From: an uncultured Gammaproteobacteria bacterium | Lineage (GTDB): Bacteria > Patescibacteriota > Microgenomatia > JALYQM01 | Length of the DNA stretch: 64,000 nucleotides | Assembly (NCBI GenBank): GCA_964403585.1 | Contig: CAYOFQ010000001.1 | Span: 1,152,826 to 1,216,825, forward strand | Reading direction: 5' to 3' | Shown here: positions 1,711-57,696 of the stretch, piece after piece | Layout: every line of letters starts with the position of its first letter | How positions within the stretch are numbered: position 1 is the stretch's first letter | Notes under the pieces: model-generated | The model's database searches: none | Told to the model about the DNA's origin: nothing | The model's input: the letters and a program-made list of their open reading frames with translations, nothing else | Position numbers and translations under genes: made by a program

Positions 1711-3300
1711 TTAGTTCTGTACATTATATTTAACCGCAACACCGGATGCTGACACATATTTGCTTGTACCTTCCATGTTGATAAAGAGCAAACTATGGAC
1801 ACCATTCGTAGTTTTAGTTGTATCCCAGGTTAAATTCCCGTTGAAGTGGGCATTTGTCTCCATTAAAGTGGTTCCCGTTTGCGTACCTTCAACGCGGACA
1901 TGTTGAGATGGATCAAGGAATACAAAGGTTTTAAATTGGTCACCACAACCACCGTTACTTTCAAACGGAATAGTGATAGTTCCTTTTACCGTTGGAATCG
2001 GTTCGCTCCCTTTCATATATTTATCAGCATTTTTAAGAATAAGGCGTTGATACGTACCACAGGTGCCAATCCAGTAGCGGGATGTAAGTTCGGATGAGCT
2101 CCGATATCCGATTCCTGTTTGCCAGTTTGAAGACAGGAAATGCCGCTGACCATCTAGTCCATCAAAATCGGCATTCGGGGTATACCGCATTTCTGTCGCT
2201 TTGCTGAAGTCTCCTGCACGCACCGTATGAATGTTTTCCGTTTTACATTCTTTACCCTCATACTTAGTACTTTGACAGGGAGCCATATTCATGGTGAACT
2301 GCTCATAAGTGCTACCCTGATTCTGCGAACGATACCACGCTGAGTTCTTGCTGCTGAACGGAATAATCGAGTTATACCGGACAAAGGTACAGGATATTTT
2401 CATTGCTTCCTTCAAAAATTGCCCGTTAGCTCGTACCGCGGGAACATTACATTCATAATGCTGGTGTAACAGCCGGGGAGTATAGTTCACATTCATCGTT
2501 TGTGCGGATGCCGGCACATTATCAAACCAGGATTGATAGGATACCGGCATACAACCGGCACTCGCATTTGGGAACCGTCCACAGGGAAGGTCACCGGAAA
2601 CCGGGGGTAGAGTCGGATTTGTAGTCTGCGTTGGATTTACCGTAGGAGTTGGAGTTGCTGTTGAGCTCCCGCTCGGAACAAATATCACCAGATACATTGA
2701 ATAGGCATTACCAGGAACATCTGCAGCCGGACCCATTTGATACGTCCCGGCGGATACCTGTCGCTTATAGATATCATATAAACCGATTAACCCCTGCTCA
2801 TTTTTACGCAATAGATATTGATTGACATTGGATTGATTGTCGTCGGTCTGACGGGTGTATTGAGAGGTTATCCACGAAGCTGCTGATGACTGCAGAACAT
2901 GTCGCGTCGCAATAAATAACGTTCCCGGCTGATTAAGGGTAACACTCCAGCTCAAATTGGGATTGTCCTTTATTTCTGCGTTCGGAGTTTGGATATACGT
3001 ACCACCTTGCATAGCCGGATCGAGTCTAAAAAAAGTATACCGGGAGTCAGTACCGTAAATTTGTCCGTTTATGTTCAGACATTGTTTGCTGAACGTATAC
3101 CCGCCAAAACTTGTTACGGAAGCGATATCGGCCGGACAGGAAGCGGCTTGAGTGAGGTCGGTTCTTTGAAATACTCCCCGGGCACCGCTAAACACCAATA
3201 AGACAACCACAAAAACGAGCACTACTACAATAGCAGGCAAAAACAGAAGGGTACTAGAAGTTCGCTTCTTAATCATAAACAACCTCGTGATCAAAATCAC
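1711..3300 (-). CDS. membrane-anchored/secreted protein: N-terminal novel domain, T/P-rich linker, Cys-rich C-terminal domain
   Basis: Signal-anchor LLFLPAIVVVLVFVVVLLVF; TATPTPTVNPTQTTNPT linker; the N-terminal roughly 155 aa are paralogous to the C-terminus of the 28721..30670 product. Confidence 0.5.
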   Translation of the reverse strand: MILITRLFMIKKRTSSTLLFLPAIVVVLVFVVVLLVFSGARGVFQRTDLTQAASCPADIASVTSFGGYTFSKQCLNINGQIYGTDSRYTFFRLDPAMQGGTYIQTPNAEIKDNPNLSWSVTLNQPGTLFIATRHVLQSSAASWITSQYTRQTDDNQSNVNQYLLRKNEQGLIGLYDIYKRQVSAGTYQMGPAADVPGNAYSMYLVIFVPSGSSTATPTPTVNPTQTTNPTLPPVSGDLPCGRFPNASAGCMPVSYQSWFDNVPASAQTMNVNYTPRLLHQHYECNVPAVRANGQFLKEAMKISCTFVRYNSIIPFSSKNSAWYRSQNQGSTYEQFTMNMAPCQSTKYEGKECKTENIHTVRAGDFSKATEMRYTPNADFDGLDGQRHFLSSNWQTGIGYRSSSELTSRYWIGTCGTYQRLILKNADKYMKGSEPIPTVKGTITIPFESNGGCGDQFKTFVFLDPSQHVRVEGTQTGTTLMETNAHFNGNLTWDTTKTTNGVHSLLFINMEGTSKYVSASGVAVKYNVQN

Positions 3301-13393: not shown

Positions 13394-14521
13394 ATGGCTT
13401 CACGTCTAACTACCACCGCCGATGCAACCAAAAAAGGTGCTATTTTCTTAGGAATTGGCATAATTGCCTTTTTTGTGCTCAGATTTACACTCACCGCTGC
13501 CTATAATGCCTGTTGTGTCCGCCCAACACCTACACCGACCCCATACATCAACCCGGCGTATGGAGTGCTTGAAGCACCGTTATTAGTCGATGGAACTACC
13601 ACCAGTGCCGGTAAAAAATTTGTTCTGGAAACCATTGACGGCAACATCCCCGAAGGCACCTCCAGCGCCATGGTCTATGAAGTAGAGAAAAAAAGTGCCG
13701 AACTCGACTACCAGCAGCAATCACTATCACTCGCTGAAAATTTAGGCTTCCGCGGCGCCAGACCGGTAAAAAACACCGATCGGACATTCCTCTTTACCGA
13801 CCAGAATGATCCCAACCGTAAGATCGAAATTGATTTCATCTACTATAATATGAACTACTCCTACGATAACCTTGCGGCATACGTATCTTTGGAACGAAGC
13901 ATTACCCCAACCATTGAACGGGCGAAACAGGACGCATTAAACTTTGTCAGCAACGCACGACCTGATTTACGCAATACCCGCGGTATCTTGGAACTTGAAA
14001 CACCGGCCAAAGGCAATTTTGTCTACTTTGACCCCACCACACAGATAACAACACCGGTTGCCTCCCAACTTCAGGCAAACCTTACCAAAGTAAATATTCC
14101 ACGCATGCCAATCTATGACATTCCGTTTATTAGTCCATATATCAATAAGAGTTTAATAAACTTCACTTTTACCGGAGTAACCACCAGTGCCAATTCACGC
14201 GATTTTCAAAATAGAATGTTAAGTGCCGAAATTGTCTACTGGCCTATTAACAACTCGCCAAATGTATTAGGTGTATATCCAACCCGAAGCACACAGCGAG
14301 CATGGGAATTACTCAACCAGGGCAAAGCCATTGTTTTAAGTCCTTCAAACCCAGGCGACGAATATAATATCCGAAAAATTTATCTCGCCTATTATGAACC
14401 ACCAACGTATCAACCATATATTCAACCGGTCTGGGTATTTGAAGGCGACAAACCAACCGACAGCAACTTCCTCTTCCGCGCCTTCGTTCCTGCAGTGCAG
14501 GAAGGGTATGTGAAGGAATAA
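13394..14521 (+). CDS. membrane-anchored extracytoplasmic hypothetical protein
   Basis: N-terminal TM helix, then a PTPTPTP linker, then a roughly 300-aa domain with no recognised motif. Confidence 0.45.
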   Translation: MASRLTTTADATKKGAIFLGIGIIAFFVLRFTLTAAYNACCVRPTPTPTPYINPAYGVLEAPLLVDGTTTSAGKKFVLETIDGNIPEGTSSAMVYEVEKKSAELDYQQQSLSLAENLGFRGARPVKNTDRTFLFTDQNDPNRKIEIDFIYYNMNYSYDNLAAYVSLERSITPTIERAKQDALNFVSNARPDLRNTRGILELETPAKGNFVYFDPTTQITTPVASQLQANLTKVNIPRMPIYDIPFISPYINKSLINFTFTGVTTSANSRDFQNRMLSAEIVYWPINNSPNVLGVYPTRSTQRAWELLNQGKAIVLSPSNPGDEYNIRKIYLAYYEPPTYQPYIQPVWVFEGDKPTDSNFLFRAFVPAVQEGYVKE

Positions 14522-17618: not shown

Positions 17619-19343
17619 ATGAGCGTAGAGACAAATAATCGCTATAAAACCTTTGATTCTCAATTGCTTTTAGGCAATACGGGAATCTTTGGTCGCCGCC
17701 GGGAAGATACTCTTCCCCTCTACGCCCCTTTGAACAGAAAGTTGGCCGATGTTCGTCCATATACCCGAATGAGAATCGACGGCCAAGACTACAATGCAAT
17801 TTCCGACTTCCGTACCGTGCGATCATTATTAAATGACTTAATTCCGACGCAGGCAGATATAATTCGTTGGGGAGTAACCCACCCGGACATCGTACATAAA
17901 CACCAGTCCGAGTATATCGGGGCTCTTTCAGCTCAATCCGTTCGACAACCCGGAGAAAAGTTAAATATAGCTGAGGCCATATTAGCCATCAATAGTCAAA
18001 ATGAAATCCTCCAAGAAGTTGCTCGTGACAATTTAATTCGGATTATGATGGAACGTCATGGATTTAACCCTAATGATGAATGTGATAGTGAAAAATTCAA
18101 CCAATACCTATTACAAGGCACTAGAGTAGCCGACGAACTCATCAACGAAGAACGCGATTTTCTAACCCCTGTTTGGGAAAAATCATCACTCCCTACCGTA
18201 ACAGAATTACAGGAACAAGTTAAAACTGATAATTTGTACACATTAATCCGATTCGCAACAAATCCTCGTGCAACCGCAAAAATACGTGAAGAAGCAACAC
18301 GAAAAGCAGTATTAATTGACCAAGCGATAGCGGCTATCTTGCGGATTGAGTCCGCAAACGGAACCATTGAAGAGGTTCATAAAGTTCTTGATGCCCACTT
18401 ATGGGAAGAAGAACAAATTGGCGAAATCCAACTCCGTGGTATTGTAATGACCCATGATGTTCGTACAGAACGATGCTTGTCTTGGGAAATCTACGATCCA
18501 CAAAAGCACGGCGCTCGTGGAAGTAGACTTCCCAAAGGTGAAACCTGGGTACAAAGATACTATGAAATGCCGTTCCACCAAATAATTCATAACGAGGAAC
18601 AACTCCAGATCCTAATGACCAGTCGAAAAAAGGAAGACGTCGCAACTCTTGCAAAATTACTCTTGAAAAACGGTGAACTCCCTGAAGATATCCGTGGAAT
18701 CCGATTCGTAGTCGATAGTCCTGAGCACGCAAAGTTGTTATCACAGCTCCTGGTTAATGCATTTCATAAATCAGGTTGGTTGCTAATGCCACAAGAGAAA
18801 GGACAAACTTTAACCCTCACTGGAGGTTTCAGCATCGAGCTAGCTGATGGGACTCACTGCGAATTTGTTCCTCCAGATGAAGTTATCAATCAAGCCAAAA
18901 GTAGCGGATTCGGCGTATTGCAATTTGATGCCCAAGTTGAAGCAGCAACTCCAACAGCACAACACACGTTACACCCAATGAAACAATTTGAGGTTCAAAT
19001 ATTCTCGATTGCCTCACTCAGAAATTCCCAGCGAGAATGGGAAATCGGTGATCCTAAACCAAATTTTCATGCCGGATATGTTTTGACAAAACGGTTCTTC
19101 GAGCGAAGGATAATCCTAGACCAGTTTGGTAACCCGGCAACAGCGGACAACTACTACACGCGATTATTCCCGGATTGGTATCTAACACGAATACAACAGA
19201 GAAGAGACGAAACAGACGTAGATAGAGCATCCCGTATCAGAACAATGCTAGATTCAGAGGAACAACCATTCAGATTAATGCTTATAGAAGGAGCTCACCG
19301 CCGTATTAGAGATGAGAGCTCAAACCGCTACATCCCATACTAA
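17619..19343 (+). CDS. hypothetical 574-aa protein with a possible divergent RelA/SpoT-like (nucleotidyltransferase) core
   Basis: Long uninterrupted ORF. Central region carries SRKKEDVATLAK, PEDIRGIRFVVD, GGFSIEL and FEVQIFS..REWEIG, which align in order with GRAKHMYSLWKK, ADLIAVRVIL, NGYRSLHT and MEVQIRT..AEYGIASH of the genuine Rel in this window. Confidence 0.45.
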   Translation: MSVETNNRYKTFDSQLLLGNTGIFGRRREDTLPLYAPLNRKLADVRPYTRMRIDGQDYNAISDFRTVRSLLNDLIPTQADIIRWGVTHPDIVHKHQSEYIGALSAQSVRQPGEKLNIAEAILAINSQNEILQEVARDNLIRIMMERHGFNPNDECDSEKFNQYLLQGTRVADELINEERDFLTPVWEKSSLPTVTELQEQVKTDNLYTLIRFATNPRATAKIREEATRKAVLIDQAIAAILRIESANGTIEEVHKVLDAHLWEEEQIGEIQLRGIVMTHDVRTERCLSWEIYDPQKHGARGSRLPKGETWVQRYYEMPFHQIIHNEEQLQILMTSRKKEDVATLAKLLLKNGELPEDIRGIRFVVDSPEHAKLLSQLLVNAFHKSGWLLMPQEKGQTLTLTGGFSIELADGTHCEFVPPDEVINQAKSSGFGVLQFDAQVEAATPTAQHTLHPMKQFEVQIFSIASLRNSQREWEIGDPKPNFHAGYVLTKRFFERRIILDQFGNPATADNYYTRLFPDWYLTRIQQRRDETDVDRASRIRTMLDSEEQPFRLMLIEGAHRRIRDESSNRYIPY

Positions 19344-25706: not shown

Positions 25707-27128
25707 TTACCTCAACAGTTTCTTATAAATCTCACAATATTCCCGGGCTGGTACCGTCCAGGAAAAGTCACGCTGCATCGCATTCACAACCATTTCCTTC
25801 CAATACTCCCGGTTTCCATGCCATTCATCATACACATATGAAAGCACATCATCAAATTCAGTTACCGTTGATTGTTCAAACAGAAAACCGCATTGGGTAC
25901 CTTCACGATCGTCAATCGTATCAACGAGTCCACCAACCATTCGACCTATCGGCAACGAACCATAGCGCATTGCAATCATTTGAGTGAGCCCGCACGGTTC
26001 ATACAAAGAAGGCACCAGGAAAGCATCACTACCAGCATAGATTAGCCGGGCATACGCTTCATCGAAACGATTAATAAATTTCACCCGATTATTATGTTTT
26101 AACGCTAAACTATGCAACATCTCAGTTAATTTAGATTCACCCACACCAAGGAAAATAAACCGCATGTTAGGATTAGCATGCTGTTTGATGGTTTCCACCA
26201 TCAGTTCAACATTCTTTTGTTCAGCAATTCGACCAACAAAGCCAAAGAGCATACTTGAAGCCGGATCGGCATCATCCCATTTTTCTTTTTTAAATAATTC
26301 AGTTTTAGCATGCAGCTTACCTTCTTCCCAGTCTGCTACCGAATACGTATGGGCAATAAACGGATCCTTGTTAGGGTTATAATAGTCAACATCAATACCG
26401 TTGGTAACTCCCACAAACTTATGACTATTTTTATCAACCACAGACTCTAACCCAAAACAAAACTCACCCTCAAGTAATTCCTGCGCATAATTTTTGGATA
26501 CGGGCACCACAGCATCGGCAGATGTTACACCCGTACCCATCAATTCATGAGTAGTATCGCTACCATCAATCTCCCGGTTCAATAAGGAATCCGTAACGGT
26601 TCCCTTATTACCAAGGTTATGAACACTTAATACCGATTTAACAGTATAATCAAGCGGCTGATCACGAAGAAGTTTTAATAACAATGAAGTATGCCAGTCA
26701 TGACAATGAATAACATCGGACTGAAGCTCTCCCAGTTTAAGCAACGTATGTACTGCCTTACAAAAGAACATAAATCGGCGCGGCTCATCATTACCAACTG
26801 CCATCGCGTCGTCCGACAAATAAATCCCCCCATTGGAAAGATACGTATCATTCAATATCAAATACAGCCAGACATCGGTGGTTTGAAAATGAACCCGATG
26901 CAACTGACATATTTCATCACGTCCTTCAAAATGAACGACAAAGTTTGGCGATCCGTCAATTTGAATAAGTTCACTTGGACTATCCTTAAGATGCTTATAC
27001 AAAGGCAGAACTACTGAAACTTCCACTCCCTGAGAAACCAGTGCCTGAGGCAAAGCACTAATAACATCTCCCAATCCACCAACTTTGGCGAAAGGAGTAC
27101 ATTCTGAAGCTACAAAAAGAATCTTCAT
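25707..27128 (-). CDS. glgA: glycogen/starch synthase (GT5)
   Basis: N-terminal MKILFVASECTPFAKVGGLGDV (K-x-GGL motif); C-terminal GT-B fold. Confidence 0.85.
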   Translation of the reverse strand: MKILFVASECTPFAKVGGLGDVISALPQALVSQGVEVSVVLPLYKHLKDSPSELIQIDGSPNFVVHFEGRDEICQLHRVHFQTTDVWLYLILNDTYLSNGGIYLSDDAMAVGNDEPRRFMFFCKAVHTLLKLGELQSDVIHCHDWHTSLLLKLLRDQPLDYTVKSVLSVHNLGNKGTVTDSLLNREIDGSDTTHELMGTGVTSADAVVPVSKNYAQELLEGEFCFGLESVVDKNSHKFVGVTNGIDVDYYNPNKDPFIAHTYSVADWEEGKLHAKTELFKKEKWDDADPASSMLFGFVGRIAEQKNVELMVETIKQHANPNMRFIFLGVGESKLTEMLHSLALKHNNRVKFINRFDEAYARLIYAGSDAFLVPSLYEPCGLTQMIAMRYGSLPIGRMVGGLVDTIDDREGTQCGFLFEQSTVTEFDDVLSYVYDEWHGNREYWKEMVVNAMQRDFSWTVPAREYCEIYKKLLR

Positions 27129-27129
27129 A

Positions 27130-28629
27130 TTATTTATACCCGATATGGCTCTTCGCCTGTGTTGTTTGGCGACGGAGTTCTATAGCGCGTTCGTATAATT
27201 TCTTGTATTCCTGGGCTGATTTGGTCCACGAAAAATCCTGCAGCATTGCCCGCTTTACCAAATTGTCCCACTCCTCTTTATGTTTATACGTCTCCAACGA
27301 TCGAACGATACTGCCAAATAAGGCAAACGGCTCGTAATGATCGAAGACAAACCCGGTTCCCTGTTTAGTAACCGGATCATAATCGGATACCGTATCGGCC
27401 AACCCTCCGGTATTACGAACCAGAGGAATGCATCCATAACGCATAGCTTCCATCTGTGTCATACCACACGGCTCAAAGCGGGATGGCAATAAAATTACAT
27501 CCGCCCCGGAAAAAATATGTCGTGGCAACGTAAAATTAGGGTTAAGATTAACTCCGACCTGATACGGATATCGTTTTGCCAGCTTGGCGAAAAATTCTCT
27601 AAAACGGTTGTCTCCACCACCATTAACAATCAATTGAACAGGAGCATATTCATCCAGTACCGGCTCAATAATCTCAGTTACCAAATCTATTCCCTTTTGT
27701 CCGTCCAAACGGTTGGAAATAGCTAGAATTGGCGTTTCTTCATCTTCAGGTAACTGGAACTCCTTTTGTAAAGCACACTTATTAATTTTTCGTTTCTCGA
27801 TATTTTCTGAAGTAAAATTTTCGACCACCAATTTATCAGTAAGCGGATTGAATTCGTCATAATCAATGCCATTAAGAATACCAAATAATTTAGTTCGAAG
27901 TTCCTGCAATAACCGCTCTAACCCTGCACCATACTCTTCAGTTAAAATCTCAGCTGCATACGTGGGTGATACAGTATTTACAATATCCGAATACATTATT
28001 CCCCGGCGCATCATGTTGATCTTTGATAAACGTGGATCATAAAAACCCGGTATCGTACTTTTGCCGTCATCAAAATCCAGGTCGGAAACAAACCGGTAGT
28101 CGTACATCCCCTGATAAGCCAAATTATGAATGCTATACAAAGTCACAATTTGTGAAAGTTTTGGATCCTGTGCATACTCAGTTGCCAGCATTTGAGAAAC
28201 CAGCGCCGTCTGCCAGTCATTACTGTGAATAACATCCGGAACCCAAGCATTTTGATCATGCCGGAGAAATTCAAGCGTTCCTCGGCACAGGAGCGTAAAC
28301 CGCATCGGGTCATCAAAATAACCATACTCGTTCGCCCGCAATTCATAATATTCCTGGTTCTCCAGGAAATAAGTTGTACGGGCTTCACTCTGGCTCATTT
28401 TTACATTACAGATTAAATCGTTAAACCCTTCTTGAGTCGGAACATGCAATCCATGCAGAACCGTATTCATTTGAGCTTTTTTTTCGTCAATTTTCCCATA
28501 TTTAGGCATCATTACCCGAACATCTATTCCGGTTTTTTGTAACTCTTTGGGAAGAAAGTAGGCGACCCGACCGAGCCCTCCGACTGTCGAATAAGGTGTT
28601 TGTTCAGTTGCTAGATAGAGGACTTTCAT
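27130..28629 (-). CDS. second GT5 glycogen-synthase-like alpha-glucan synthase (tandem paralog)
   Basis: MKVLYLATEQTPYSTVGGLGRV; 499 aa; translationally coupled to glgA. Confidence 0.8.
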   Translation of the reverse strand: MKVLYLATEQTPYSTVGGLGRVAYFLPKELQKTGIDVRVMMPKYGKIDEKKAQMNTVLHGLHVPTQEGFNDLICNVKMSQSEARTTYFLENQEYYELRANEYGYFDDPMRFTLLCRGTLEFLRHDQNAWVPDVIHSNDWQTALVSQMLATEYAQDPKLSQIVTLYSIHNLAYQGMYDYRFVSDLDFDDGKSTIPGFYDPRLSKINMMRRGIMYSDIVNTVSPTYAAEILTEEYGAGLERLLQELRTKLFGILNGIDYDEFNPLTDKLVVENFTSENIEKRKINKCALQKEFQLPEDEETPILAISNRLDGQKGIDLVTEIIEPVLDEYAPVQLIVNGGGDNRFREFFAKLAKRYPYQVGVNLNPNFTLPRHIFSGADVILLPSRFEPCGMTQMEAMRYGCIPLVRNTGGLADTVSDYDPVTKQGTGFVFDHYEPFALFGSIVRSLETYKHKEEWDNLVKRAMLQDFSWTKSAQEYKKLYERAIELRRQTTQAKSHIGYK

Positions 28630-28720: not shown

Positions 28721-30670
28721 ATGAAAAAGCATCTCCTTTTGGCCTGCGTAACATTTATTTTCAGTACCCTAATATATGGAGTTCTAACACAATCAAATCT
28801 TGGTAGCGATATCCAACGTCAATCTGAAACATTTGCGGCCGGTACAACCTACTATGTGGATTGCTCGAATGGTAGCGATGCTGCTAACGGAACATCCGCC
28901 AACACCGCATGGAAAAGTTTAACCAAAGCCAATGTCGCATCGTTAAGTCCCGGTGACAAGTTGGCATTTAAAAGAGGATGCATCTGGAGCGGACGACTCA
29001 AGGCCGGTTGGAAAGGTACTGCAGCGGCACCCATAACTATCGGCGATTATGGAACCGGAGCCCTACCAAGTATCCAAACTCCTCCCTCTTTAACATCGAG
29101 CCGCGTAGAGGTAACGGGCGACTATCAAATCATCGAAAACCTTGATGTTCGAACAATCAATACGCAAGTAGATCCCAACTGCCGGAATCAAAGGATCGGG
29201 TATTTCGTTGGATTCAATTTCATCGGAACAAGTGCCAATAATATTCTGAGAAATACTAAATCCAGCGGTAATACTATCGGTGTCCAAATTCATGACGACA
29301 GCCACCATAATAAAATTTTAAATAATGAAATGTTTAATAACGGAGTCATGAATAAATTAACACCCGACCCTTCACCCGACCTTGGAGCGTGGGGTATGAA
29401 TCTCCGCGGCGATGACAATGAGATTGCCTATAACTATATCCACGACAATAACGGGGTATGCGCCTATGATTTTAGCATTCAGCCGGGAAATGCCATCGAA
29501 CTGTATAACGCCGACCGCAACCTGATTCACCATAACAAAGTAATTAATGACCGTGTTTTCTCAGAAGTTGGTCATGACGGTAGTCATACTGCCAACGACA
29601 ACGTTTGGGCATACAACATCTTTATCAGCAACACCAAAACATCACGTTTTCTGGTATTACACGGAGCCAATAGTTCCTTTGGACCGGTTCTGCGCAGCAA
29701 AGCCTTCAATAATAGTATATATCTGTACGGACCAACAAGTACCGGTATTGGCAGCAGCGATAATGCAACTATAGTTAAAAACAACATTGTTGTCGCAACA
29801 GACCAACTTACCAGTTCCACAGAGATTAATCAAAGTAATAACATTTGGTGGAATCCTAACGGGCCCGCCGTTGTAAAAAAACTTGGACCGGGTGATCGAA
29901 AAATTGATCCGCAATTCGTCAATCCCACCCAGGGCGATTTACATCTGAAAGCAACCAGTCCTGCCATAAACGCCGGGACCACAACCGGACTGAGCCTTAG
30001 TACAGATTTTGACGGTAATACTGTTCCCGTTGGAACTAACTATGATATCGGCGCCTACGAATTTACGACCGGCACTACTCCCTCACCATCCTCAAGTCCA
30101 ACACCAACACCTACTCCAACTCCATCACCAACTCCCAGTCCAACATCAACCGTAGCTCCGACTCCTACACCAACAGCCGCGCCGTGCGCGAATGACAATT
30201 TATTTACTATCGTCCCGTCAGTGAACTATACCTTTTCCAAAGGTTGCTTAACTATCGGATCAACAATCTATAGTGATGATACCCGGTTCACCTATTTCTC
30301 CCTGCCATCATATCTGCAAAATCTACCAACCGTAAAAACCGGCAATATTGCGGAAAAAAGCGACCTGAACCTTAATTTTGGTATTCGAGCCAACTCCCCG
30401 GTTAAAGTCTACCTGATGTACCGTAAAATACCGGGCCAGGGAGTCCCCACATGGATCACGGAAAAATTTACTAAGATCACGTCTGAGAGCTACGAGAATT
30501 TGCCCGAGTTTGCGCTACGAAAAAATGAGCAGGGACTTATTGGGGTGTACGATATCTACGAACAGAAAACTAGGCTTGTCGCCGGAGAAAGTTTGGCTCT
30601 CGGCCCTGCTTCAGATACTACCCATACAGCCTTCTCTATGTATTTAGTGGCTATAGCACCACAACAATAA
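28721..30670 (+). CDS. secreted right-handed beta-helix (pectate-lyase-fold) protein, T/P-rich linker, C-terminal novel shared domain
   Basis: Signal peptide; repeated NN..G, IHDNNGV and HHNKVIND beta-helix rungs; linker PSPSSSPTPTPTPTPSPTPSPTS; C-terminal 155 aa paralogous to the N-terminal domain of the 1711..3300 product. Confidence 0.6.
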   Translation: MKKHLLLACVTFIFSTLIYGVLTQSNLGSDIQRQSETFAAGTTYYVDCSNGSDAANGTSANTAWKSLTKANVASLSPGDKLAFKRGCIWSGRLKAGWKGTAAAPITIGDYGTGALPSIQTPPSLTSSRVEVTGDYQIIENLDVRTINTQVDPNCRNQRIGYFVGFNFIGTSANNILRNTKSSGNTIGVQIHDDSHHNKILNNEMFNNGVMNKLTPDPSPDLGAWGMNLRGDDNEIAYNYIHDNNGVCAYDFSIQPGNAIELYNADRNLIHHNKVINDRVFSEVGHDGSHTANDNVWAYNIFISNTKTSRFLVLHGANSSFGPVLRSKAFNNSIYLYGPTSTGIGSSDNATIVKNNIVVATDQLTSSTEINQSNNIWWNPNGPAVVKKLGPGDRKIDPQFVNPTQGDLHLKATSPAINAGTTTGLSLSTDFDGNTVPVGTNYDIGAYEFTTGTTPSPSSSPTPTPTPTPSPTPSPTSTVAPTPTPTAAPCANDNLFTIVPSVNYTFSKGCLTIGSTIYSDDTRFTYFSLPSYLQNLPTVKTGNIAEKSDLNLNFGIRANSPVKVYLMYRKIPGQGVPTWITEKFTKITSESYENLPEFALRKNEQGLIGVYDIYEQKTRLVAGESLALGPASDTTHTAFSMYLVAIAPQQ

Positions 30671-30683
30671 CTACATAAAAAAA

Positions 30684-30702
30684 TACCCCGGATCCCGGGG
30701 TA
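30684..30702. terminator. bidirectional terminator hairpin (perfect palindrome TACCCCGGATCCGGGGTA) between convergent genes
   Basis: A-run upstream and T-rich downstream; lies between the beta-helix gene and ftsH. Confidence 0.6.
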
Positions 30703-30726
30703 TTAAATTCTTTAGAAATCACTCTC

Positions 30727-44612: not shown

Positions 44613-45926
44613 CTAATAGGCGCTTAAATCCTCATCGTCGACAGTACCCGGATCCTCACCTGCCGGACGTGTCATTCCCGCATCTGAACCTCCGGAGGTA
44701 TCGTCACCTGCAGGGAACGTACCGTCCTCATTTGGCCTCATCCGATCTGAATTGGCGTCACCGGATTCGGAACTTGATACACAGTACAAACTGCCAAGTA
44801 TATCAGGTTTAGCCATTATCCCCGTACTGTTTCCGGACTTCTCTTCCAGGCGCGCACAGAGACTAAAATCATTACCATCTTCAGTGACCGTATACTGATA
44901 CGGTGCTTTCGTCTTTGGATCAACCGGCAAAGTCCCTATTCCTCCAGCCTGCACTAAAGCGTCCAGTGATGTCGGATAGGTACCATTGGTTGCTTTATAC
45001 AGATCAAGACTCCCCTGTATTTTCGCTAAATCAGCCATCCGGTTGGCATCACGGGCAGTCTTTACTAACCCTGAAGGGTTAATCGCCAATAACATAATAG
45101 GTAATGCAAACAAAGCGATCATCGCTACTATACCTACTACAGCCATAACCGTAAACTTTTTACGGGTACCATCAGCAATGGGAATTACTCCCGGCTTTAG
45201 AGCTTTAAGATTCTCATAGAGCGCAAATCCATACGTCACAGCCAGAAAATTCATGGCCATTTGCACTACCCAGGAGACCAGTGCCACAATTCCGGCAAAC
45301 ATCGGATAGCCTGCCTTGGCCAGTTGCTCCTGTAGCGCCGAAATAAGAATTATCAGGATAAAATACACTAATCCGAGAACAAAAAACCGCCCGAATACTC
45401 CCCACCATCGTCCCCGAACATATTCCCGGCTTGTTAAGGCGGCATTCAATCCTTTAATATTCTGGTCAACCAGCACCAGGTGACTGAACGCAAATGCCAC
45501 CGCCAAAATGATACCCGGTATTATTAACACCATAAAACCGGTTGCCACGATCAAACCTAAAAGTAAACTAACCCATAAATAGGGAAGAATATATTGTTTT
45601 GACGCGCTGTACGCCTCATTAAAACTAACATCACGGTCATGATGAACAACTAAGTAGATTTCTGCTAGTTGAACCCACATCCCAACCACCAGGAAGACAA
45701 TGTAAGACACTACAATTGCAATAATAATGCCGGCGCCGAGACCACTAAAGTCCGACATCCCGCCCAGCATGGCGGTTCCCCCAACCATTACCACCATCAG
45801 GATCATCCATGCGATAACAAATCCAATTAAGGGCAGGAATATCAGGAGAGCTGACTTCCACTTTTTTTCAAAAATCATCCACGCGCGATCAAAAAGTTGC
45901 GATGGACCCAATAATGTTTGCTCCAT
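44613..45926 (-). CDS. polytopic membrane protein with C-terminal type-IV-pilin/T2SS-GspG-like domain and acidic tail
   Basis: About 270-aa multi-TM N-domain; then pilin-like helix MAVVGIVAMIALFALPIMLLA; then NRMADLAKIQGSLDLYKATNGTYPTSLDAL...LPVDPKTKAPYQY resembling GspG (DIRTIETALDMYKLDNGRYPT...PKDPWGNPYQY); D/E/G/S-rich tail. Confidence 0.6.
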   Translation of the reverse strand: MEQTLLGPSQLFDRAWMIFEKKWKSALLIFLPLIGFVIAWMILMVVMVGGTAMLGGMSDFSGLGAGIIIAIVVSYIVFLVVGMWVQLAEIYLVVHHDRDVSFNEAYSASKQYILPYLWVSLLLGLIVATGFMVLIIPGIILAVAFAFSHLVLVDQNIKGLNAALTSREYVRGRWWGVFGRFFVLGLVYFILIILISALQEQLAKAGYPMFAGIVALVSWVVQMAMNFLAVTYGFALYENLKALKPGVIPIADGTRKKFTVMAVVGIVAMIALFALPIMLLAINPSGLVKTARDANRMADLAKIQGSLDLYKATNGTYPTSLDALVQAGGIGTLPVDPKTKAPYQYTVTEDGNDFSLCARLEEKSGNSTGIMAKPDILGSLYCVSSSESGDANSDRMRPNEDGTFPAGDDTSGGSDAGMTRPAGEDPGTVDDEDLSAY

Positions 45927-49433: not shown

Positions 49434-50750
49434 ATGGATAAAAAAACAAGAATTCTCGTTTCGATCGCCTCAATAGTAATATTGGGCTTAGGAACCATTA
49501 TCGGCGTCCTCCTGGTACAGGGATATACTTTTGACGCCAAAAACAAGAAAGTTGTACAGACCGGAGTATTAGTCGTAAACTCAGTGCCGAATGGTGCTCA
49601 AATTTATATTGACGGTCACTATCAAAACGTAACGAATACCAGTATCTCCTTTCTCCCAGCCAAAAAATACAGCATCCGTATAACCAAGGAAGGATATATT
49701 CCGTGGGAAAAAGAGATGACAATCGACAACCAAATTATCTCAGAAATTGAGGCAATACTGTGGCCGGCCACACCGAGCGTAAATCCGATAACCAATACCG
49801 GGGCTATTGATGTCAAACTTTCGCCCGACATGCTTAAAGCCGCATACGCCATACGATTTAGCGAAAAGGATAAAGCCGGCTTATGGATAATGGATATGGC
49901 TAAAAGAACAGTATTTTCCGGACCCTCTACGGATTTTACCCAAATTGCACGGAACACCAACGACTTAGACTTCAGCAGAGCCGAATTACTGTGGTCACCG
50001 GACAGCAAACAAATCCTGGCAACACTTCAGGAAGGCAACCGGCCGGAAGCACGATATACCCGTAATTTTCTTCTTGATATAACCAAACTAAACACCAATC
50101 CTACCGATATAACACTTTCCAAGGACGGACAATTAAAGACCTGGAACGATGAACTGAATAAAATTGAAAATGTCCGGTTAACTAAAATAGCCAGCGATGT
50201 TAAAGCAATCAAGATAGCTTCCGATTCGGCAATTCCGTTGAAATGGTCATACGACGGCACCATGTTCCTGTACGCAACAAAAGATACACCGGACACTGCT
50301 GCAACCCAAAAGCCAAAAGTGGTAGTAGTGCCTTCGCTCAATAAAACAGCCACTCAGTCAGCTGCTGCCGTAGATGCCATTGAAGCCACCAGCGCCGCCA
50401 GTTATATTTCACGAATAGAAAGTCAGACCGCCAGCTTCTCGGCCAACCTGAATGTAAAAATTTACGATACCAAGAAAAAAACCAGCTTCGATATGCCTAA
50501 GGCAAAATATTACGCCTGGTACCCCGCTGAAGAAAAAGCTGATCGGGAAATTCAACACCTGGTTATGGTTGAAGATGGTAGTATCTCCATGGTCGAAACC
50601 GACGGTAAGAACAAGTCGACGATTTATTCAGGTCCATTTGAAGACAGCATTGTCTTCCCCTGGCCTGACGGAGGACGTCTGGTGATACTCACCAACTTCA
50701 ATCTTAAGGCAGGAACTGAACCAAATATTTATACAATAAATCTAAGATAA
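49434..50750 (+). CDS. membrane-anchored PEGA-domain protein with TolB-like beta-propeller repeats
   Basis: TM helix; PEGA motif VVNSVPNGAQIYIDGHYQNVTNTSISFLPAKKYSIRITKEGYIPWE; later LWSPDSKQILAT and WSYDGTMFLYAT. Confidence 0.55.
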   Translation: MDKKTRILVSIASIVILGLGTIIGVLLVQGYTFDAKNKKVVQTGVLVVNSVPNGAQIYIDGHYQNVTNTSISFLPAKKYSIRITKEGYIPWEKEMTIDNQIISEIEAILWPATPSVNPITNTGAIDVKLSPDMLKAAYAIRFSEKDKAGLWIMDMAKRTVFSGPSTDFTQIARNTNDLDFSRAELLWSPDSKQILATLQEGNRPEARYTRNFLLDITKLNTNPTDITLSKDGQLKTWNDELNKIENVRLTKIASDVKAIKIASDSAIPLKWSYDGTMFLYATKDTPDTAATQKPKVVVVPSLNKTATQSAAAVDAIEATSAASYISRIESQTASFSANLNVKIYDTKKKTSFDMPKAKYYAWYPAEEKADREIQHLVMVEDGSISMVETDGKNKSTIYSGPFEDSIVFPWPDGGRLVILTNFNLKAGTEPNIYTINLR

Positions 50751-55041: not shown

Positions 55042-57696
55042 TTAAAACTCATCGGACCACTGTGGATCAACCGGATCGGCTAATTCAATATCCTTGCTAC
55101 CGGTCTGTGTCGGAGCAACCACATACTTAATTCCATCTTCTTTACCGGGACCACAGGAAGTTGTAGTAAGACCTGGGGTAAAGTGAGGCAATAAACACAT
55201 TTTATAGCCTGGAGGATCGTACATTTTCTTATCCGGATAGTATTTTGTATACGCTTCAATGATTGAGAAGGATACTAATCCTTCAGGAGTAATATTGATT
55301 CCCTGGAAACCTCCCCAGCCGTATCCACCATCCTGAGCACGGGAAACTTTACCGGATAACGGAAGCCCCTGTTCCCACCGGCCGTTACTACCGTTCTTAT
55401 ATGCATACTGCATTTGAATAAAACCGCTGTAATTTAAGAATCTATAAACGATAACTGTCGTGTCACCAATCCGGGCAATCGCACTATTCGAGGATTCCGC
55501 AAAACGTCGACTTCCTAAGTCATATTGCAACATATCCTTGGCGTCTTGACCGGGTGCATATTTAAGCAATCCCCGCTCATAGTCAATCGATCGACGCACC
55601 GCAAATTCAGGTTTAGTAAATACATTCCCATTTGTCACATAAGTTGTATGGATAACCCCTACCTGCCCGTTTAAAGTATTTCGACCCACCGGAGTAACTG
55701 CCGCTGCAATATCGGCAAAACATGAGTTAAATGAACCGGATGGCGTACCACTCAAGGCGCAACGTGCCTGAACCGTAAATGGACGCGAATCATAACCGCC
55801 GGTCTTAAGATTCATGCCATCGGCATTAAGCGGCACCGGCCGTGACGGAACTATATTGGTAAGCCCGGTGTCTCCAAAGTAGAACTTCGAATAATACAGG
55901 TTCCCGCCGCCTTCGTCAGCACCAAGCACATGAATTCCATCCAGTTCATCGATAGCAAAAGCTCCGTTAAATGGAAACTGCACAGGCAATTTCTCTTTGG
56001 GCGTCCAGCTTTTACCACCATCATAACTAATAGTATAGGTATACTTTTGAGCACCGCTACCACCCAGTGGATAGAAAACAATAACTGAACCTTTAGAATT
56101 TACAAAGGTATACAAAGCGAAGTGTTCATATCCGATATCTCCATATCCGGGAACTGGAGCAAACGGGCTCAAAAAGTCTGGCTCATCAGAAATCGAGACA
56201 TACAGCTGTTTACCCGCAATTGTAGCAACCGAATAGCGTTGCCCTTTTACCTGTTGGTGGAGCGCCGGAACTTCTTGCGGATCATCCAAACGGCTTCCGT
56301 CCCGTAACGGCCTGGCACCAAGCGGTTTTCCATCAACAAAAACAGTACCCTTTAATCGCCCCTGCTCACCTCTGAGATAGGCTCGATGAACCCCAGATTG
56401 AGTTACTCCATATCCAGTTGGTAAAAGCTCAGCATTAGCAAAACGATAGTCATTGGAAATTTCGACATCGGCGCCAAGCTCACTGACGAAATCCATTTCA
56501 AAAGGACCATGTCTGTTAACACCCGAAACATCTCCACCAATATCGAATGCCGCAGGAAGTCCCTCCGGACTACCGTCAATCCGGGTCTTCTTCTGAGAAT
56601 CCAACCATTTGCGATCCTGACCTGAATAGAGTCCCAACTTATCGTACAGTGCCGGCTTATAATACTGCTCAATGGCATCCTGATCAAAAGGAAGTTCATT
56701 CGTTTTATTATCAAACGTACCTGCAGATAAGTACGGTTTGGTTGAGAAACTCACCGGAGCGACACCCGGACCTGCCGGTGTTCCCGGCTCACTGTCTGTG
56801 GAAGTTGGATCCTGGAAAATAATATCCGGAGTGTCTCCCAATGCACAAACGTTACTTTCAAGTGGAGGATACTGTATCGGCTGAGCCGGAGCACCACCAT
56901 TTGCAGTAGGCTCGGCACACAAGATATCGGCAATGAAGTTCTTATCTTTTGGTGTTCTAAACACGCAGATACCGTCTGCACCGTCCGGTGGATTTGGATA
57001 CGTGCTCAGATCCGTTACCTGGCAGTCAACATCTGGTAAGTTATATTTATCGGCGCAGAAATTAGGTGTAGCGGTATTACAATACCAGGGGCCGGTATGA
57101 ATGATCGGCGGAATAGCCCGGGCAATCTGTCGGATAGTTTGAACATACGGTACGTTAATTTCCTGTGAATCGGTAATACCTTGAAACGGTGTGTCAACAC
57201 CGTTACAGCTCAAATCCCATCGCCACGCTCCGGCGCTTTCTACCGGGGTATACGTACAATCCTGTCGGGAAATAGTCCCGTTGGTCTCAAAAGTCAGTTT
57301 ACCTTTGGAGATAGTCTTAGTATCAATACATTTGGTTTTCCAGCGATCCTCACCATATTTGGCAATTGCGGCAGTCTCATCGACAGTGACAAACGGAGTG
57401 AGCAAATTATAATAATTCCAGAATATTTGGGAATAGTTATAAGACTTGAGATTAGCATCAAAACCGTACGATACACCTTGTCCTGGATTAAAACTCATCC
57501 CTCCGCCTTCTGACAAGTCGTCATAATTCGGATTCTTAACTTTGCCGTTAGTTATGGCTCCACCCCACACTGCCGGCTGCCAATAACACTCTACTGCCTC
57601 GACAGGTTGCACAAAAACACTCGACGCGAGAATCGAGTAAAACACTATACCGAGAGACAAAAACGAGCTTAAATACTTAGGCAATCGATATTTCAT
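55042..57696 (-). CDS. large (884-aa) secreted Cys-rich protein with BNR/Asp-box motif
   Basis: Signal-anchor; one clear Asp-box SYDGGKSW; many Cys; first gene of a BNR-GT2-MFS unit. Confidence 0.55.
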   Translation of the reverse strand: MKYRLPKYLSSFLSLGIVFYSILASSVFVQPVEAVECYWQPAVWGGAITNGKVKNPNYDDLSEGGGMSFNPGQGVSYGFDANLKSYNYSQIFWNYYNLLTPFVTVDETAAIAKYGEDRWKTKCIDTKTISKGKLTFETNGTISRQDCTYTPVESAGAWRWDLSCNGVDTPFQGITDSQEINVPYVQTIRQIARAIPPIIHTGPWYCNTATPNFCADKYNLPDVDCQVTDLSTYPNPPDGADGICVFRTPKDKNFIADILCAEPTANGGAPAQPIQYPPLESNVCALGDTPDIIFQDPTSTDSEPGTPAGPGVAPVSFSTKPYLSAGTFDNKTNELPFDQDAIEQYYKPALYDKLGLYSGQDRKWLDSQKKTRIDGSPEGLPAAFDIGGDVSGVNRHGPFEMDFVSELGADVEISNDYRFANAELLPTGYGVTQSGVHRAYLRGEQGRLKGTVFVDGKPLGARPLRDGSRLDDPQEVPALHQQVKGQRYSVATIAGKQLYVSISDEPDFLSPFAPVPGYGDIGYEHFALYTFVNSKGSVIVFYPLGGSGAQKYTYTISYDGGKSWTPKEKLPVQFPFNGAFAIDELDGIHVLGADEGGGNLYYSKFYFGDTGLTNIVPSRPVPLNADGMNLKTGGYDSRPFTVQARCALSGTPSGSFNSCFADIAAAVTPVGRNTLNGQVGVIHTTYVTNGNVFTKPEFAVRRSIDYERGLLKYAPGQDAKDMLQYDLGSRRFAESSNSAIARIGDTTVIVYRFLNYSGFIQMQYAYKNGSNGRWEQGLPLSGKVSRAQDGGYGWGGFQGINITPEGLVSFSIIEAYTKYYPDKKMYDPPGYKMCLLPHFTPGLTTTSCGPGKEDGIKYVVAPTQTGSKDIELADPVDPQWSDEF

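Follow-up and report, generated by a model that had tools for sequence, protein, structure and literature searches.

A domain shared by two exported proteins

Genes A and B lie 25.4 kb apart in the 64,000 nucleotides of DNA analysed here (the window), and a segment of about 160 residues in the product of one recurs in the product of the other. By BLASTP with composition-based statistics, A486–647 aligns with B52–209 at 38% identity and 58% positives over 162 aa with 4 gap positions (E = 1e-31), and the Smith-Waterman score of the two domains is 295 as compared with 30 ± 5.4 in 1000 shuffles (maximum 67; z = 49). At a sequence entropy of ∼4.1 bits, neither segment is of low complexity. The similarity pointed out in the initial annotation is significant by these measures, and the placement it described was borne out as well: in A the domain is C-terminal and comes after a P/T-rich linker, in B it is N-terminal and such a linker follows it (Table 1). 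The linkers are distinct from the domain and are confined to A and B among window ORFs of ≥150 aa; marginal extra BLAST segments (E 0.006–0.02) come from these low-complexity stretches. By tblastn with either one as query, the 64 kb window has no copies besides those of A and B. A recent intragenomic duplication was rejected, as the two copies fall into separate clades of the domain tree.

Table 1. Features of genes A and B in the window (positions count from the first letter of the window).
Feature	Position	Strand	Description
Gene A	28721..30670	+	ORF, 649 aa; exported, probable beta-helix protein with C-terminal shared domain
A hydrophobic N-terminal segment	28733..28789	+	residues 5–23 after MKKH; 19-residue uncharged run (script)
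A probable right-handed beta-helix region	28823..30064	+	residues ∼35–448; structure and homologue matches
A choice-of-anchor Q domain	29939..30064	+	residues 407–448, closes the beta-helix; NCBIfam NF041518
A P/T/S-rich linker	30065..30184	+	residues 449–488; translation
A shared domain	30185..30661	+	residues 489–647, Cys489/Cys509; BLASTP, family profile, AF2, Foldseek
Palindromic hairpin, perfect 10-bp stem	30682..30704	.	between convergent gene A and ftsH; consensus scan only
Gene B	1711..3300	-	529-aa ORF, GTG start; hydrophobic segment, shared domain, P/T linker, 290-aa module
B hydrophobic N-terminal segment	3181..3234	-	residues 23–40 of the 529-aa ORF; 18-residue run, then S-G-A
B shared domain	2674..3138	-	residues 55–209, Cys55/Cys74; BLASTP, tblastn, family profile
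B P/T/S-rich linker	2581..2673	-	residues 210–240
B C-terminal module	1714..2580	-	residues 241–529, Cys-rich

The domain is a branch of a wider superfamily with one solved member

AF2 gives a confident all-beta model of the A domain with 12 beta strands (pLDDT 96, pTM 0.90). The top Foldseek match is 6hpd (E 9.6e-6, TMq 0.70, rmsd 2.9 Å, 164 columns), where the related region is residues 863–988, the C-terminal domain of a GH2 beta-glucuronidase. In hhalign the subfamily of the window (profile A2) matches a wide superfamily (profile A4) with a probability of 99.4% (E 3.8e-21, 137 columns), and A4 in turn matches 6hpd_A residues 863–988 with an E-value of 1.1e-18. The subfamily profile also retrieves more than 60 wide-family proteins in HMMER at E < 1e-3. 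Compared directly with the 6HPD sequence alone, A2 scores poorly in hhalign (probability 40%, E 3e-4); the link to 6HPD rests on the intermediate superfamily together with the structure. The domain had been described as novel and uncharacterised. This stands insofar as no Pfam-A or NCBIfam model matches it, but it is a divergent branch of a wider, likewise unmodelled superfamily that includes the solved 6HPD domain.

The 6HPD domain and A4 have the core residues R42, T60, N62, Y84, W98 and Y161 in common with the subfamily of the window, and the 6HPD domain, too, is an accessory beta-sandwich at the end of an enzyme active on glycans, yet identity to the subfamily is just 13–19%. A4 is marked by the signature motifs DRxYT, TxNxDK, VYVAYDxR...PxWL, LGGN and Y-V-V. 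Of these the subfamily retains R42, T60, N62, Y84, P96, W98 and Y161, with the D of DR kept in 77% of sequences, whereas the DK of NxDK, the D of YD and GGN are swapped for subfamily-specific residues; NxDK becomes Nx(3)KxD, and YRKIPGQ with LRKNxxGLIGxYDIY replaces VYVAYDxR and a short, poorly conserved stretch. The subfamily also differs by its Cys pair and by occurring as one copy per protein beside a P/T linker, while the wide family often has 2–6 copies interleaved with Ig-like domains. The literature searched for 6HPD, P17_GH2 and GH138 does not describe a function of the 6HPD C-terminal domain. The second-best structural match is the accessory beta-sandwich of GH138 BP0997 (6HZF/6HZE; Foldseek E 2.5e-5, probability 1.0), which again belongs to an enzyme for a uronic-acid polysaccharide but superposes more loosely (TMq 0.53–0.57, rmsd above 6 Å); sequence profiles gave no match to PDB 6HZF/6HZE.

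The domain is combined with many exported enzymes of one lineage

An exhaustive HMMER search gave 113 hits, among them about 50 clusters with the full domain, all in exported proteins. A word-index protein search returned no more than 4 relatives for the single domain as query and 2 for the profile of 43 sequences. Of the 185,579 GTDB species genomes scanned with two conserved peptide patterns from alignment A1, only two have the domain, one in at least 14 copies and the other in at least 7, and the window's own 1.57-Mb contig has at least 6.

The domain always occupies one end of an exported protein and is connected to the remainder by a flexible P/T/S linker; it follows a hydrophobic segment at the N-terminus, forms the very C-terminus or stands alone. 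N-type proteins have a basic N-terminus, a hydrophobic run of 16–22 aa, about 20 aa, the domain, a P/T/S linker and the enzyme; in C-type proteins the enzyme is followed by the linker and a domain that ends 1–2 aa ahead of the stop. As the domain is N-terminal in ∼33 of ∼47 complete family proteins (∼70%), a C-terminal sorting signal (T9SS CTD, LPXTG, PEP-CTERM) is excluded, and a T9SS-like C-terminal sorting domain was rejected on the same ground. Stand-alone forms are P0001, P0002 and P0030; P0001 comes from MDV bin63 and P0002 is encoded on the window's contig, and both genomes have enzyme-borne copies too. Partner modules comprise beta-helix, PL7, other alginate lyases, GH88, GH31, GH39, GH5, DUF4874 with DUF4832, phytase, Metallophos (three) and Cyt-b5 (seven). 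In all, about a dozen unrelated modules have been recombined with the domain inside one lineage, and the neighbor-joining (NJ) tree of the domain implies several switches between the N- and C-terminal positions. The modular shuffling suspected from the two window copies is thus family-wide. The NJ tree forms a continuum in which stand-alone copies are nested among enzyme-borne ones, and some domain-bearing genes are adjacent to one another.

Invariant and near-invariant columns are kept in the 43 aligned sequences whatever the partner. The conserved polar and aromatic residues (model numbering) are Y37, R42, T60, N62, K66, R88, W98, R120, Y130, D131, S159 and Y161, and the motif LRKNxxGLIGxYDIY is unusually strongly conserved across the family. 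The two Cys noted earlier behave as a pair: both are present in 39 of the 43 sequences and neither in 2, and 40 of the 43 have exactly two Cys in the domain. The domain is mildly basic (median pI 8.5, net charge ∼+2), which points to no particular ligand class. A lytic polysaccharide monooxygenase (LPMO) was rejected, as the domain has neither an N-terminal His nor any conserved His.

The probable beta-helix of gene A

Residues ∼35–448 of A presumably form a glycan-active catalytic part, either a glycoside hydrolase or a polysaccharide lyase. The beta-helix proposed in the initial annotation is probably a right-handed one, going by its sequence, and both solved structures and annotated homologues match it. 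The cap at its N-terminal end resembles GH136 lacto-N-biosidases, and 7v6m is matched at 2.4e-11 by the single sequence and at 2.2e-15 by profile A5; the GH136 structures 7v6m, 5gqc, 6kqs and 7v6i cover residues ∼35–120, and with profile A5 the beta-helix also matches GH120 3vst and PL9 5olq. NCBIfam LnbX matches residues 27–112 only (4e-13), with 48 bits against a cut-off of 2500. In contrast to a full-length match to the catalytic beta-helix of GH136 LnbX, about 90 residues of A match, the PDB matches covering A35–120 only, and no LnbY-like chaperone gene is adjacent to gene A, whose flanks are glycogen synthase and ftsH. Nitrospira proteins annotated as right-handed parallel beta-helix are 25–27% identical to the A beta-helix over ∼440 aa, and in Nitrospira the same beta-helix is joined to wide-family copies of the shared domain. 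Pfam Beta_helix matches other family members and has no match on A itself. An AF2 model of the A beta-helix made from 4 sequences is unreliable (pLDDT 47), and so is its strand periodicity, which is compatible with a beta-helix.

The helix is closed by a choice-of-anchor Q domain (E 4.9e-12, 45.9 bits, cut-off 25; for the meaning of 'choice-of-anchor' see bioRxiv 10.1101/2023.03.06.531300), and the shared domain of A follows it at the place where homologues usually bear a sorting or anchor signal. The last 32 residues ahead of the shared domain are 91% P/T/S, and the domain stops 2 residues short of the stop codon.

A sugar-binding tether as the favoured role

Taken together, these data suggest that the domain is probably a sugar-binding tether passed around between numerous secreted enzymes in a single lineage with small genomes. 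In its full form, as a disulfide-stabilised, non-catalytic, CBM-like tether with a single ligand common to all copies, we give this reading about an even chance of being right. An autonomous beta-sandwich module of ∼160 aa without a catalytic role would act as a common tether, keeping scavenging enzymes (polysaccharide lyases, hydrolases, phosphatases, cytochrome b5) on the polymer that holds its ligand, while the P/T linker would lend reach to the catalytic module. The ligand would most likely be a glycan, and all copies probably bind the same one because the same polar and aromatic residues are fixed whatever the partner enzyme.

Several lines of evidence favour the tether, namely the fold, the chain of homology, the architecture, the partners, the conservation, the Cys pair and its loss only jointly, the copy number, the recurrence of the beta-helix/domain pairing in Nitrospira, and the position of the A domain after choice-of-anchor Q, the usual place of an anchor signal. 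The domain also resembles the CBMs of CAZy that are attached by Pro/Thr linkers (CBM2/CBM3 of actinobacterial and clostridial enzymes), which are beta-sandwiches of the same ∼150-aa size, found at either terminus and shuffled among enzyme specificities with one conserved set of residues kept; as with CAZy CBMs, the domain is a discrete fold contiguous with carbohydrate-active modules. It differs from them by its phosphatase and unknown-module partners. The tether is weakened by the lack of a CBM model match: among Pfam-A models, CBM models included, none matches more than one of the 43 subfamily domains (E ≤10) or of 20 wide-family domains (E ≤1), and the single-member matches are to non-CBM families with non-significant E-values. 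It is further weakened by the absence of canonical CBM jelly-rolls from the significant Foldseek matches.

Regarding the ligand, we lean towards a polymer in the envelope of the cell itself or in its immediate matrix, by which the enzymes would be retained at the cell surface, over the substrates of the enzymes. This leaning comes from the unrelated chemistries of the partners, from the stand-alone copies with a hydrophobic N-terminus and from the absence of another recognisable anchor, as SLH, LPXTG/Gram_pos_anchor, LysM and T9SS/Por_Secre_tail models have no match in 42 full-length members. Envelope anchoring would be weakened if the N-type hydrophobic segment is uncleaved, since a second envelope anchor is then redundant, and it is weakened by the fact that the sole relative of solved structure lies in a Bacteroidota GH2 enzyme, where anchoring is unlikely. 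SLH, LysM, LPXTG and the T9SS CTD likewise occur on many unrelated exported proteins of one genome, and the A domain holds the same post-choice-of-anchor place, but they have no sequence relationship to it. It is possible, though we consider it rather unlikely, that the domain is the anchor of a surface display specific to this Patescibacteria-like lineage and unrelated to these four systems, which would hold most exported scavenging enzymes on the own or a host envelope, the stand-alone membrane-anchored copies being adhesins or docking sites.

Alternative readings

The alternative that survives best, and to which we give a distinctly smaller but real chance, is a classical CBM that targets an external structural polysaccharide and enriches the enzyme there, as CBM2/CBM3 do on plant-cell-wall enzymes. 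The ligands would plausibly be acidic, uronate-containing polymers (alginate-like or pectin/ulvan-like), since the 6HPD and 6HZF domains are accessory domains of enzymes for uronic-acid polysaccharides, the GH138 structure 6HZF is deposited as targeting pectin rhamnogalacturonan II, and many partners have substrates of this kind (PL7, alginate lyase, GH88, beta-helix). A weak match of one wide-family member to the NCBIfam alpha-D-galacturonidase model (E 0.063) and the conserved Arg and Lys residues R42, K66, R88, R120 and K121 are in keeping with such ligands, although the net charge is just ∼+2. Lignocellulose systems offer examples of CBMs fused to extracellular cytochrome domains. However, phytase, three metallophosphoesterases and unknown modules have the domain too, with its conserved residues unchanged. 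Only ∼20 aa separate the domain of N-type proteins from the membrane segment, and the linker comes beyond it, an odd arrangement for substrate capture if the segment is uncleaved.

To a protein-protein docking module of the cohesin-dockerin kind, in which anchored stand-alone copies would recruit enzyme-borne copies into a surface complex, we give little credence. The stand-alone copies with a hydrophobic N-terminus (P0001, P0002) do share genomes with enzyme-borne copies, the copies per genome are numerous with some of the genes adjacent, and LRKNxxGLIGxYDIY is unusually strongly conserved. This is contrasted by the continuum of the NJ tree, in which two complementary sequence classes are not seen, by the absence of any family match to cohesin or dockerin Pfam models, and by the 6HPD homologue, which is found inside an enzyme chain and not in a docking protein.

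Similarly improbable is a purely structural role as a stalk, spacer or folding aid, in which the domain would be passive, bind no ligand and be conserved only for the stability of its fold. Many of the conserved residues are in predicted strands, the domain is always terminal and adjoins a linker, and accessory beta-sandwich domains of large glycoside hydrolases are often without a demonstrated ligand. Yet the invariant polar residues R42, N62, K66, R88, R120, D131 and S159 would be unusual in a purely structural beta-sandwich, proteins made of an anchor and the domain would be purposeless, and repeated independent fusions suggest that the module has a function of its own. Finally, chance, low complexity or an annotation artefact, for which the sole point is the nearby low-complexity P/T linkers, is refuted as the source of the A/B similarity by the alignment and shuffling statistics, the 113 HMMER homologues and the pLDDT of 96, and has next to no probability left.

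As a binding module, the domain would found a new CBM-like family, which becomes much larger once the wide superfamily is counted in; if it is an ordinary substrate CBM, the gain is improved annotation only. As Pfam and NCBIfam have no model for it, its copies are invisible to annotation that relies on those libraries, and 6HPD is a solved structure ready as a template. In this little-known lineage, 7–14 or more of the exported proteins in a genome bear the domain (the genome of the window is ∼1.5 Mb). Knowing the ligand would tell where the scavenging enzymes are placed, be it the surface of the cell itself, a host or a polymer of the matrix, and this has a bearing on the nutrition of bacteria with small genomes that probably depend on partners.

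Genomic setting of genes A and B

Genes A and B lie among housekeeping genes (tRNA synthetases, PolA, RecJ, FtsH, RelA), and a polysaccharide-utilisation-type cluster was accordingly rejected. The start of gene B is probably the ATG at 3276 and not the GTG. Full-length paralogues or orthologues of B are P0027 (58%), P0011 (38%) and P0033 (26%). Its C-terminal module has no Pfam or NCBIfam match above cut-off; it is 72% identical to the corresponding region of P0027 and has a weak homologue in locus L012. A type IV pilin or TadE-like protein was rejected for B, as the TadE match (E 0.036) is below cut-off and covers the hydrophobic segment only, without a prepilin motif. Directly downstream of gene B is a 193-aa ORF with no homologue in the related loci that were fetched, for which reason we do not count it in the system.

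The product of gene A has an exact match in public assemblies, on a contig of 1,573,555 bp, and the FtsH of the window is most like that of Patescibacteria/Microgenomates. Residues 5–23 of A would be a signal peptide or signal anchor. The gene is apparently monocistronic; its upstream neighbour is divergent and its downstream neighbour convergent, and the hairpin that follows it appears terminator-like on both strands.

The shared domain of genes A and B

The products of genes A and B share a segment that BLASTP aligns between A486–647 and B52–209 at 38% identity (E 1e-31). This similarity stands at z = 49 in a Smith-Waterman shuffle test, and low complexity does not account for it as amino-acid entropy is ordinary in both segments. 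The initial annotation had placed both reading frames exactly and had proposed a common domain with opposite order relative to P/T-rich linkers. This order is confirmed, as the linkers are distinct from the domain in both proteins, with the linker preceding the domain in gene A and following it in gene B. Among window ORFs of at least 150 aa only these two carry such a linker, and tblastn found no third domain copy in the window. Both genes are surrounded by housekeeping genes with no polysaccharide-utilisation cluster. The hairpin between gene A and ftsH looks like a bidirectional terminator common to both genes, and gene A appears to be monocistronic. The 193-aa ORF that follows gene B may be co-transcribed with it.

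Features of the window discussed in the text
Feature	Position	Strand	Description
Gene A	28721–30670	+	649-aa ORF
Choice-of-anchor Q domain	gene A residues 407–448		NCBIfam match
Gene B	1711–3300	−	529-aa ORF from GTG; ATG at 3276 is a more plausible start
193-aa ORF	1120–1701	−	starts 9 bp past gene B stop; N-terminal hydrophobic segment; no Pfam or NCBIfam match, no homologue in related loci fetched
Tandem glycogen/starch-synthase paralogues	25707–27128; 27130–28629	−	Glyco_transf_5 + Glycos_transf_1; immediately upstream of gene A, transcribed divergently from it
Palindromic hairpin	30682–30704		terminator-like, between convergent gene A and ftsH; perfect 10-bp stem, AATACCCCGG...CCGGGGTATT
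A-Q-x(1-3)-C (or A-A-x-C) motif, example	3139–3156	−	directly precedes first Cys of domain
PEGA protein	49434–50750	+	438 aa
Long ORF, no Pfam match at E ≤ 1e-5	55042–57696	−	884 aa
Long ORF, no Pfam match at E ≤ 1e-5	17619–19343	+	574 aa
Long ORF, no Pfam match at E ≤ 1e-5	44613–45926	−	437 aa
Long ORF, no Pfam match at E ≤ 1e-5	13394–14521	+	375 aa

Outside the shared domain, gene A resembles GH136 lacto-N-biosidases at residues ∼35–120, which correspond to their N-terminal cap, and a four-sequence profile also reaches a GH120 xylosidase and a PL9 lyase. These matches fit the beta-helix proposed initially, and the catalytic part is predicted with good support to be a right-handed beta-helix glycan-active enzyme. 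The AlphaFold2 model of this part is unreliable (pLDDT 47). Membership of GH136 itself is unsupported, with a score of 48 bits against an NCBIfam cut-off of 2500, a match confined to the cap and no adjacent chaperone gene.

Family size and conserved residues

A word-index protein search with the single domain returned just four relatives. When 1.84 billion cluster representatives were searched exhaustively with an HMMER profile, 113 proteins matched (40 at E < 1e-30), about 50 of which contain the whole domain. Conservation was counted in a subfamily alignment of 43 sequences, with numbering from A481 as residue 1. Y37, R88, G128, Y130, S159, M160 and Y161 are invariant, and C9, C29, R42, T60, N62, K66, W73, P96, W98, R120, D131, A150 and A157 are at least 90% conserved. 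The two cysteines noted as conserved in the initial annotation are both present in 39 of the 43 sequences and both absent from 2, a pattern compatible with a putative disulfide bond, given that the proteins are exported.

Fold and relationship to 6HPD

AlphaFold2 with the 43-sequence alignment gave a confident all-beta model of 12 strands (pLDDT 96, pTM 0.90). Foldseek against the PDB returned only five significant chains: the GH2 beta-glucuronidase 6HPD (TMq 0.70, rmsd 2.9 Å, 13% identity) and four chains of the GH138 enzyme BP0997 (TMq ∼0.55). The remaining matches were noise, and canonical CBM jelly rolls, absent from the significant PDB matches, are thus structurally not close to the domain. 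The best BFVD match, an uncharacterised giant-virus protein of Tetraselmis virus 1 (A0A2P0VNA9; E 7e-7, TMq 0.68, 18% identity), contains a domain with the same predicted fold.

From P0051 on, the HMMER matches are weaker and belong to long surface proteins that carry 2–6 repeats of a related domain; this wide family has the consensus vG..YiDRsYT..vP..l.G..yI.TaNdDK...fLsF.v.q..tVYVAyD.R....P.WL...LGGN...mY.V.V. In hhalign the subfamily matches the wide family with 99.4% probability (E 3.8e-21), and the wide-family profile in turn matches 6HPD residues 863–988 (E 1.1e-18). Because direct comparison of the subfamily with 6HPD is weak (probability 40%), the link rests on the wide family and on structure; together these establish that the window domain is homologous to a glycoside hydrolase accessory domain. 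The domain was initially called novel. It does lack a model in Pfam-A (2025 copy) and NCBIfam (2026), as does the wide family, but it is a branch of a superfamily that includes a solved structure. Accessory binding modules shuffled on P/T linkers are a familiar kind of element, whose layout the window domain shares.

Wide-family proteins of Nitrospira/Nitrospirales combine a beta-helix 25–27% identical to that of gene A with two domain copies, which are C-terminal in a Candidatus Nitrospira protein (WP_312740810.1, P0106) and N-terminal in one from a Nitrospirales MAG (GJL59414.1, P0080). These fusions indicate, at the sequence level, that the pairing recurs across phyla with the same N/C flexibility.

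Architectures and partner modules

Every protein of the family starts with basic residues and a 16–22-aa hydrophobic run. In the N-type layout (∼33 proteins, including gene B) this run is followed by ∼20 aa, the domain, a P/T/S linker and a variable module. The C-type layout (13 proteins, including gene A) has the variable module, a linker and the domain, which ends 1–2 residues before the stop; three proteins (P0001, P0002, P0030) consist of the hydrophobic run and domain only. An A-Q-x(1-3)-C (or A-A-x-C) motif directly precedes the first Cys in N-type proteins (also at loci L012–L018) and is absent in C-type proteins; possible roles are those of a processing site or an N-terminal cap.

About a dozen partner modules occur. 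Pfam assigns right-handed beta-helix proteins, PL7 alginate lyase (P0015), Alginate_lyase, GH88, GH31, GH39, GH5, DUF4874+DUF4832, beta-propeller phytase, metallophosphoesterase (three proteins) and a cytochrome-b5-like domain (7 of 42 full-length members), the last being an exported haem-binding domain on a P/T tether. Further partners, among them the 290-aa C-terminal part of gene B, have no assigned family. In a neighbour-joining tree most C-type domains form one clade, with two phytase C-type copies nested among N-type copies, and two N-type and two stand-alone copies nested among C-type copies. This mixed nesting argues that domain position and partner have changed several times, in keeping with the modular shuffling first suggested. 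The two window copies fall in separate clades, so recent duplication is rejected and they are old paralogues.

Proposed role of the domain

The domain is a discrete terminal beta-sandwich of exported proteins, joined by linkers and recombined with many partners, and its conserved set of polar and aromatic residues is unchanged whatever the partner. We infer that it is a non-catalytic module that binds a single ligand shared by all copies, most probably a glycan. Enzymes would be tethered to this ligand, with the P/T linker giving them reach.

We lean towards retention of the enzymes on the cell's own envelope or immediate matrix, because the partner chemistries are unrelated (lyases, glycosidases, phytase, phosphoesterases, cytochrome b5), stand-alone copies exist and no other anchor is present: no SLH, LysM, LPXTG or T9SS model matched in family members, which answers the initial question of co-occurrence with S-layer or wall-binding modules. 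In gene A, moreover, the domain is placed after a choice-of-anchor domain, a name given to surface proteins ending in alternative anchors (bioRxiv 10.1101/2023.03.06.531300). The leading alternative is a classical CBM that targets enzymes to acidic polysaccharide substrates, as the structural relatives sit in uronate-active enzymes and the partners include PL7, GH88 and alginate lyase; the unrelated chemistry of the other partners favours envelope or matrix retention. That the domain is a dedicated surface-display anchor of a Patescibacteria-like lineage seems to us rather unlikely. A docking module, a structural spacer or an artefact is less likely than a substrate-targeting CBM. The PEGA domain of the 438-aa protein is typical of surface/S-layer-type proteins, and this protein could be relevant to the organism's envelope.

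Distribution and lineage

A scan with two conserved peptide patterns, which distant copies lacking both could escape, located the domain in only two MAGs among 185,579 GTDB species genomes. Within 6 kb of pattern matches there are at least 14 domain genes in JALYQM01 ('MDV bin63') and at least 7 in CAZHTP01, some adjoining one another, a notable lineage-restricted expansion. The exact gene A protein lies on a 1,573,555-bp contig; P0002, P0003, P0011 and P0015 are listed with this same length for their longest contig and so probably lie on it too, which would bring the genome of the window to at least six copies. The window FtsH is 89% identical to that of an unclassified 'bacterium' MAG. Its named relatives are all Patescibacteria/Microgenomates (Curtiss-, Davies- and Gottesmanbacteria), and because they are just 57–62% identical, placement of the lineage there is tentative. 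CAZHTP01 (loci L007, L010, L011, L014, L015, L017) is labelled 'uncultured Gammaproteobacteria bacterium', which looks doubtful because the domain has otherwise been found only in the Patescibacteria-like lineage of the window.

The + strand of the window has a skewed composition, with more A than T (19476 vs 17310) and more C than G (15223 vs 11991), and long ORFs lie mostly on the − strand. This is consistent with a location within a single replichore for which the + strand is the lagging-strand template.
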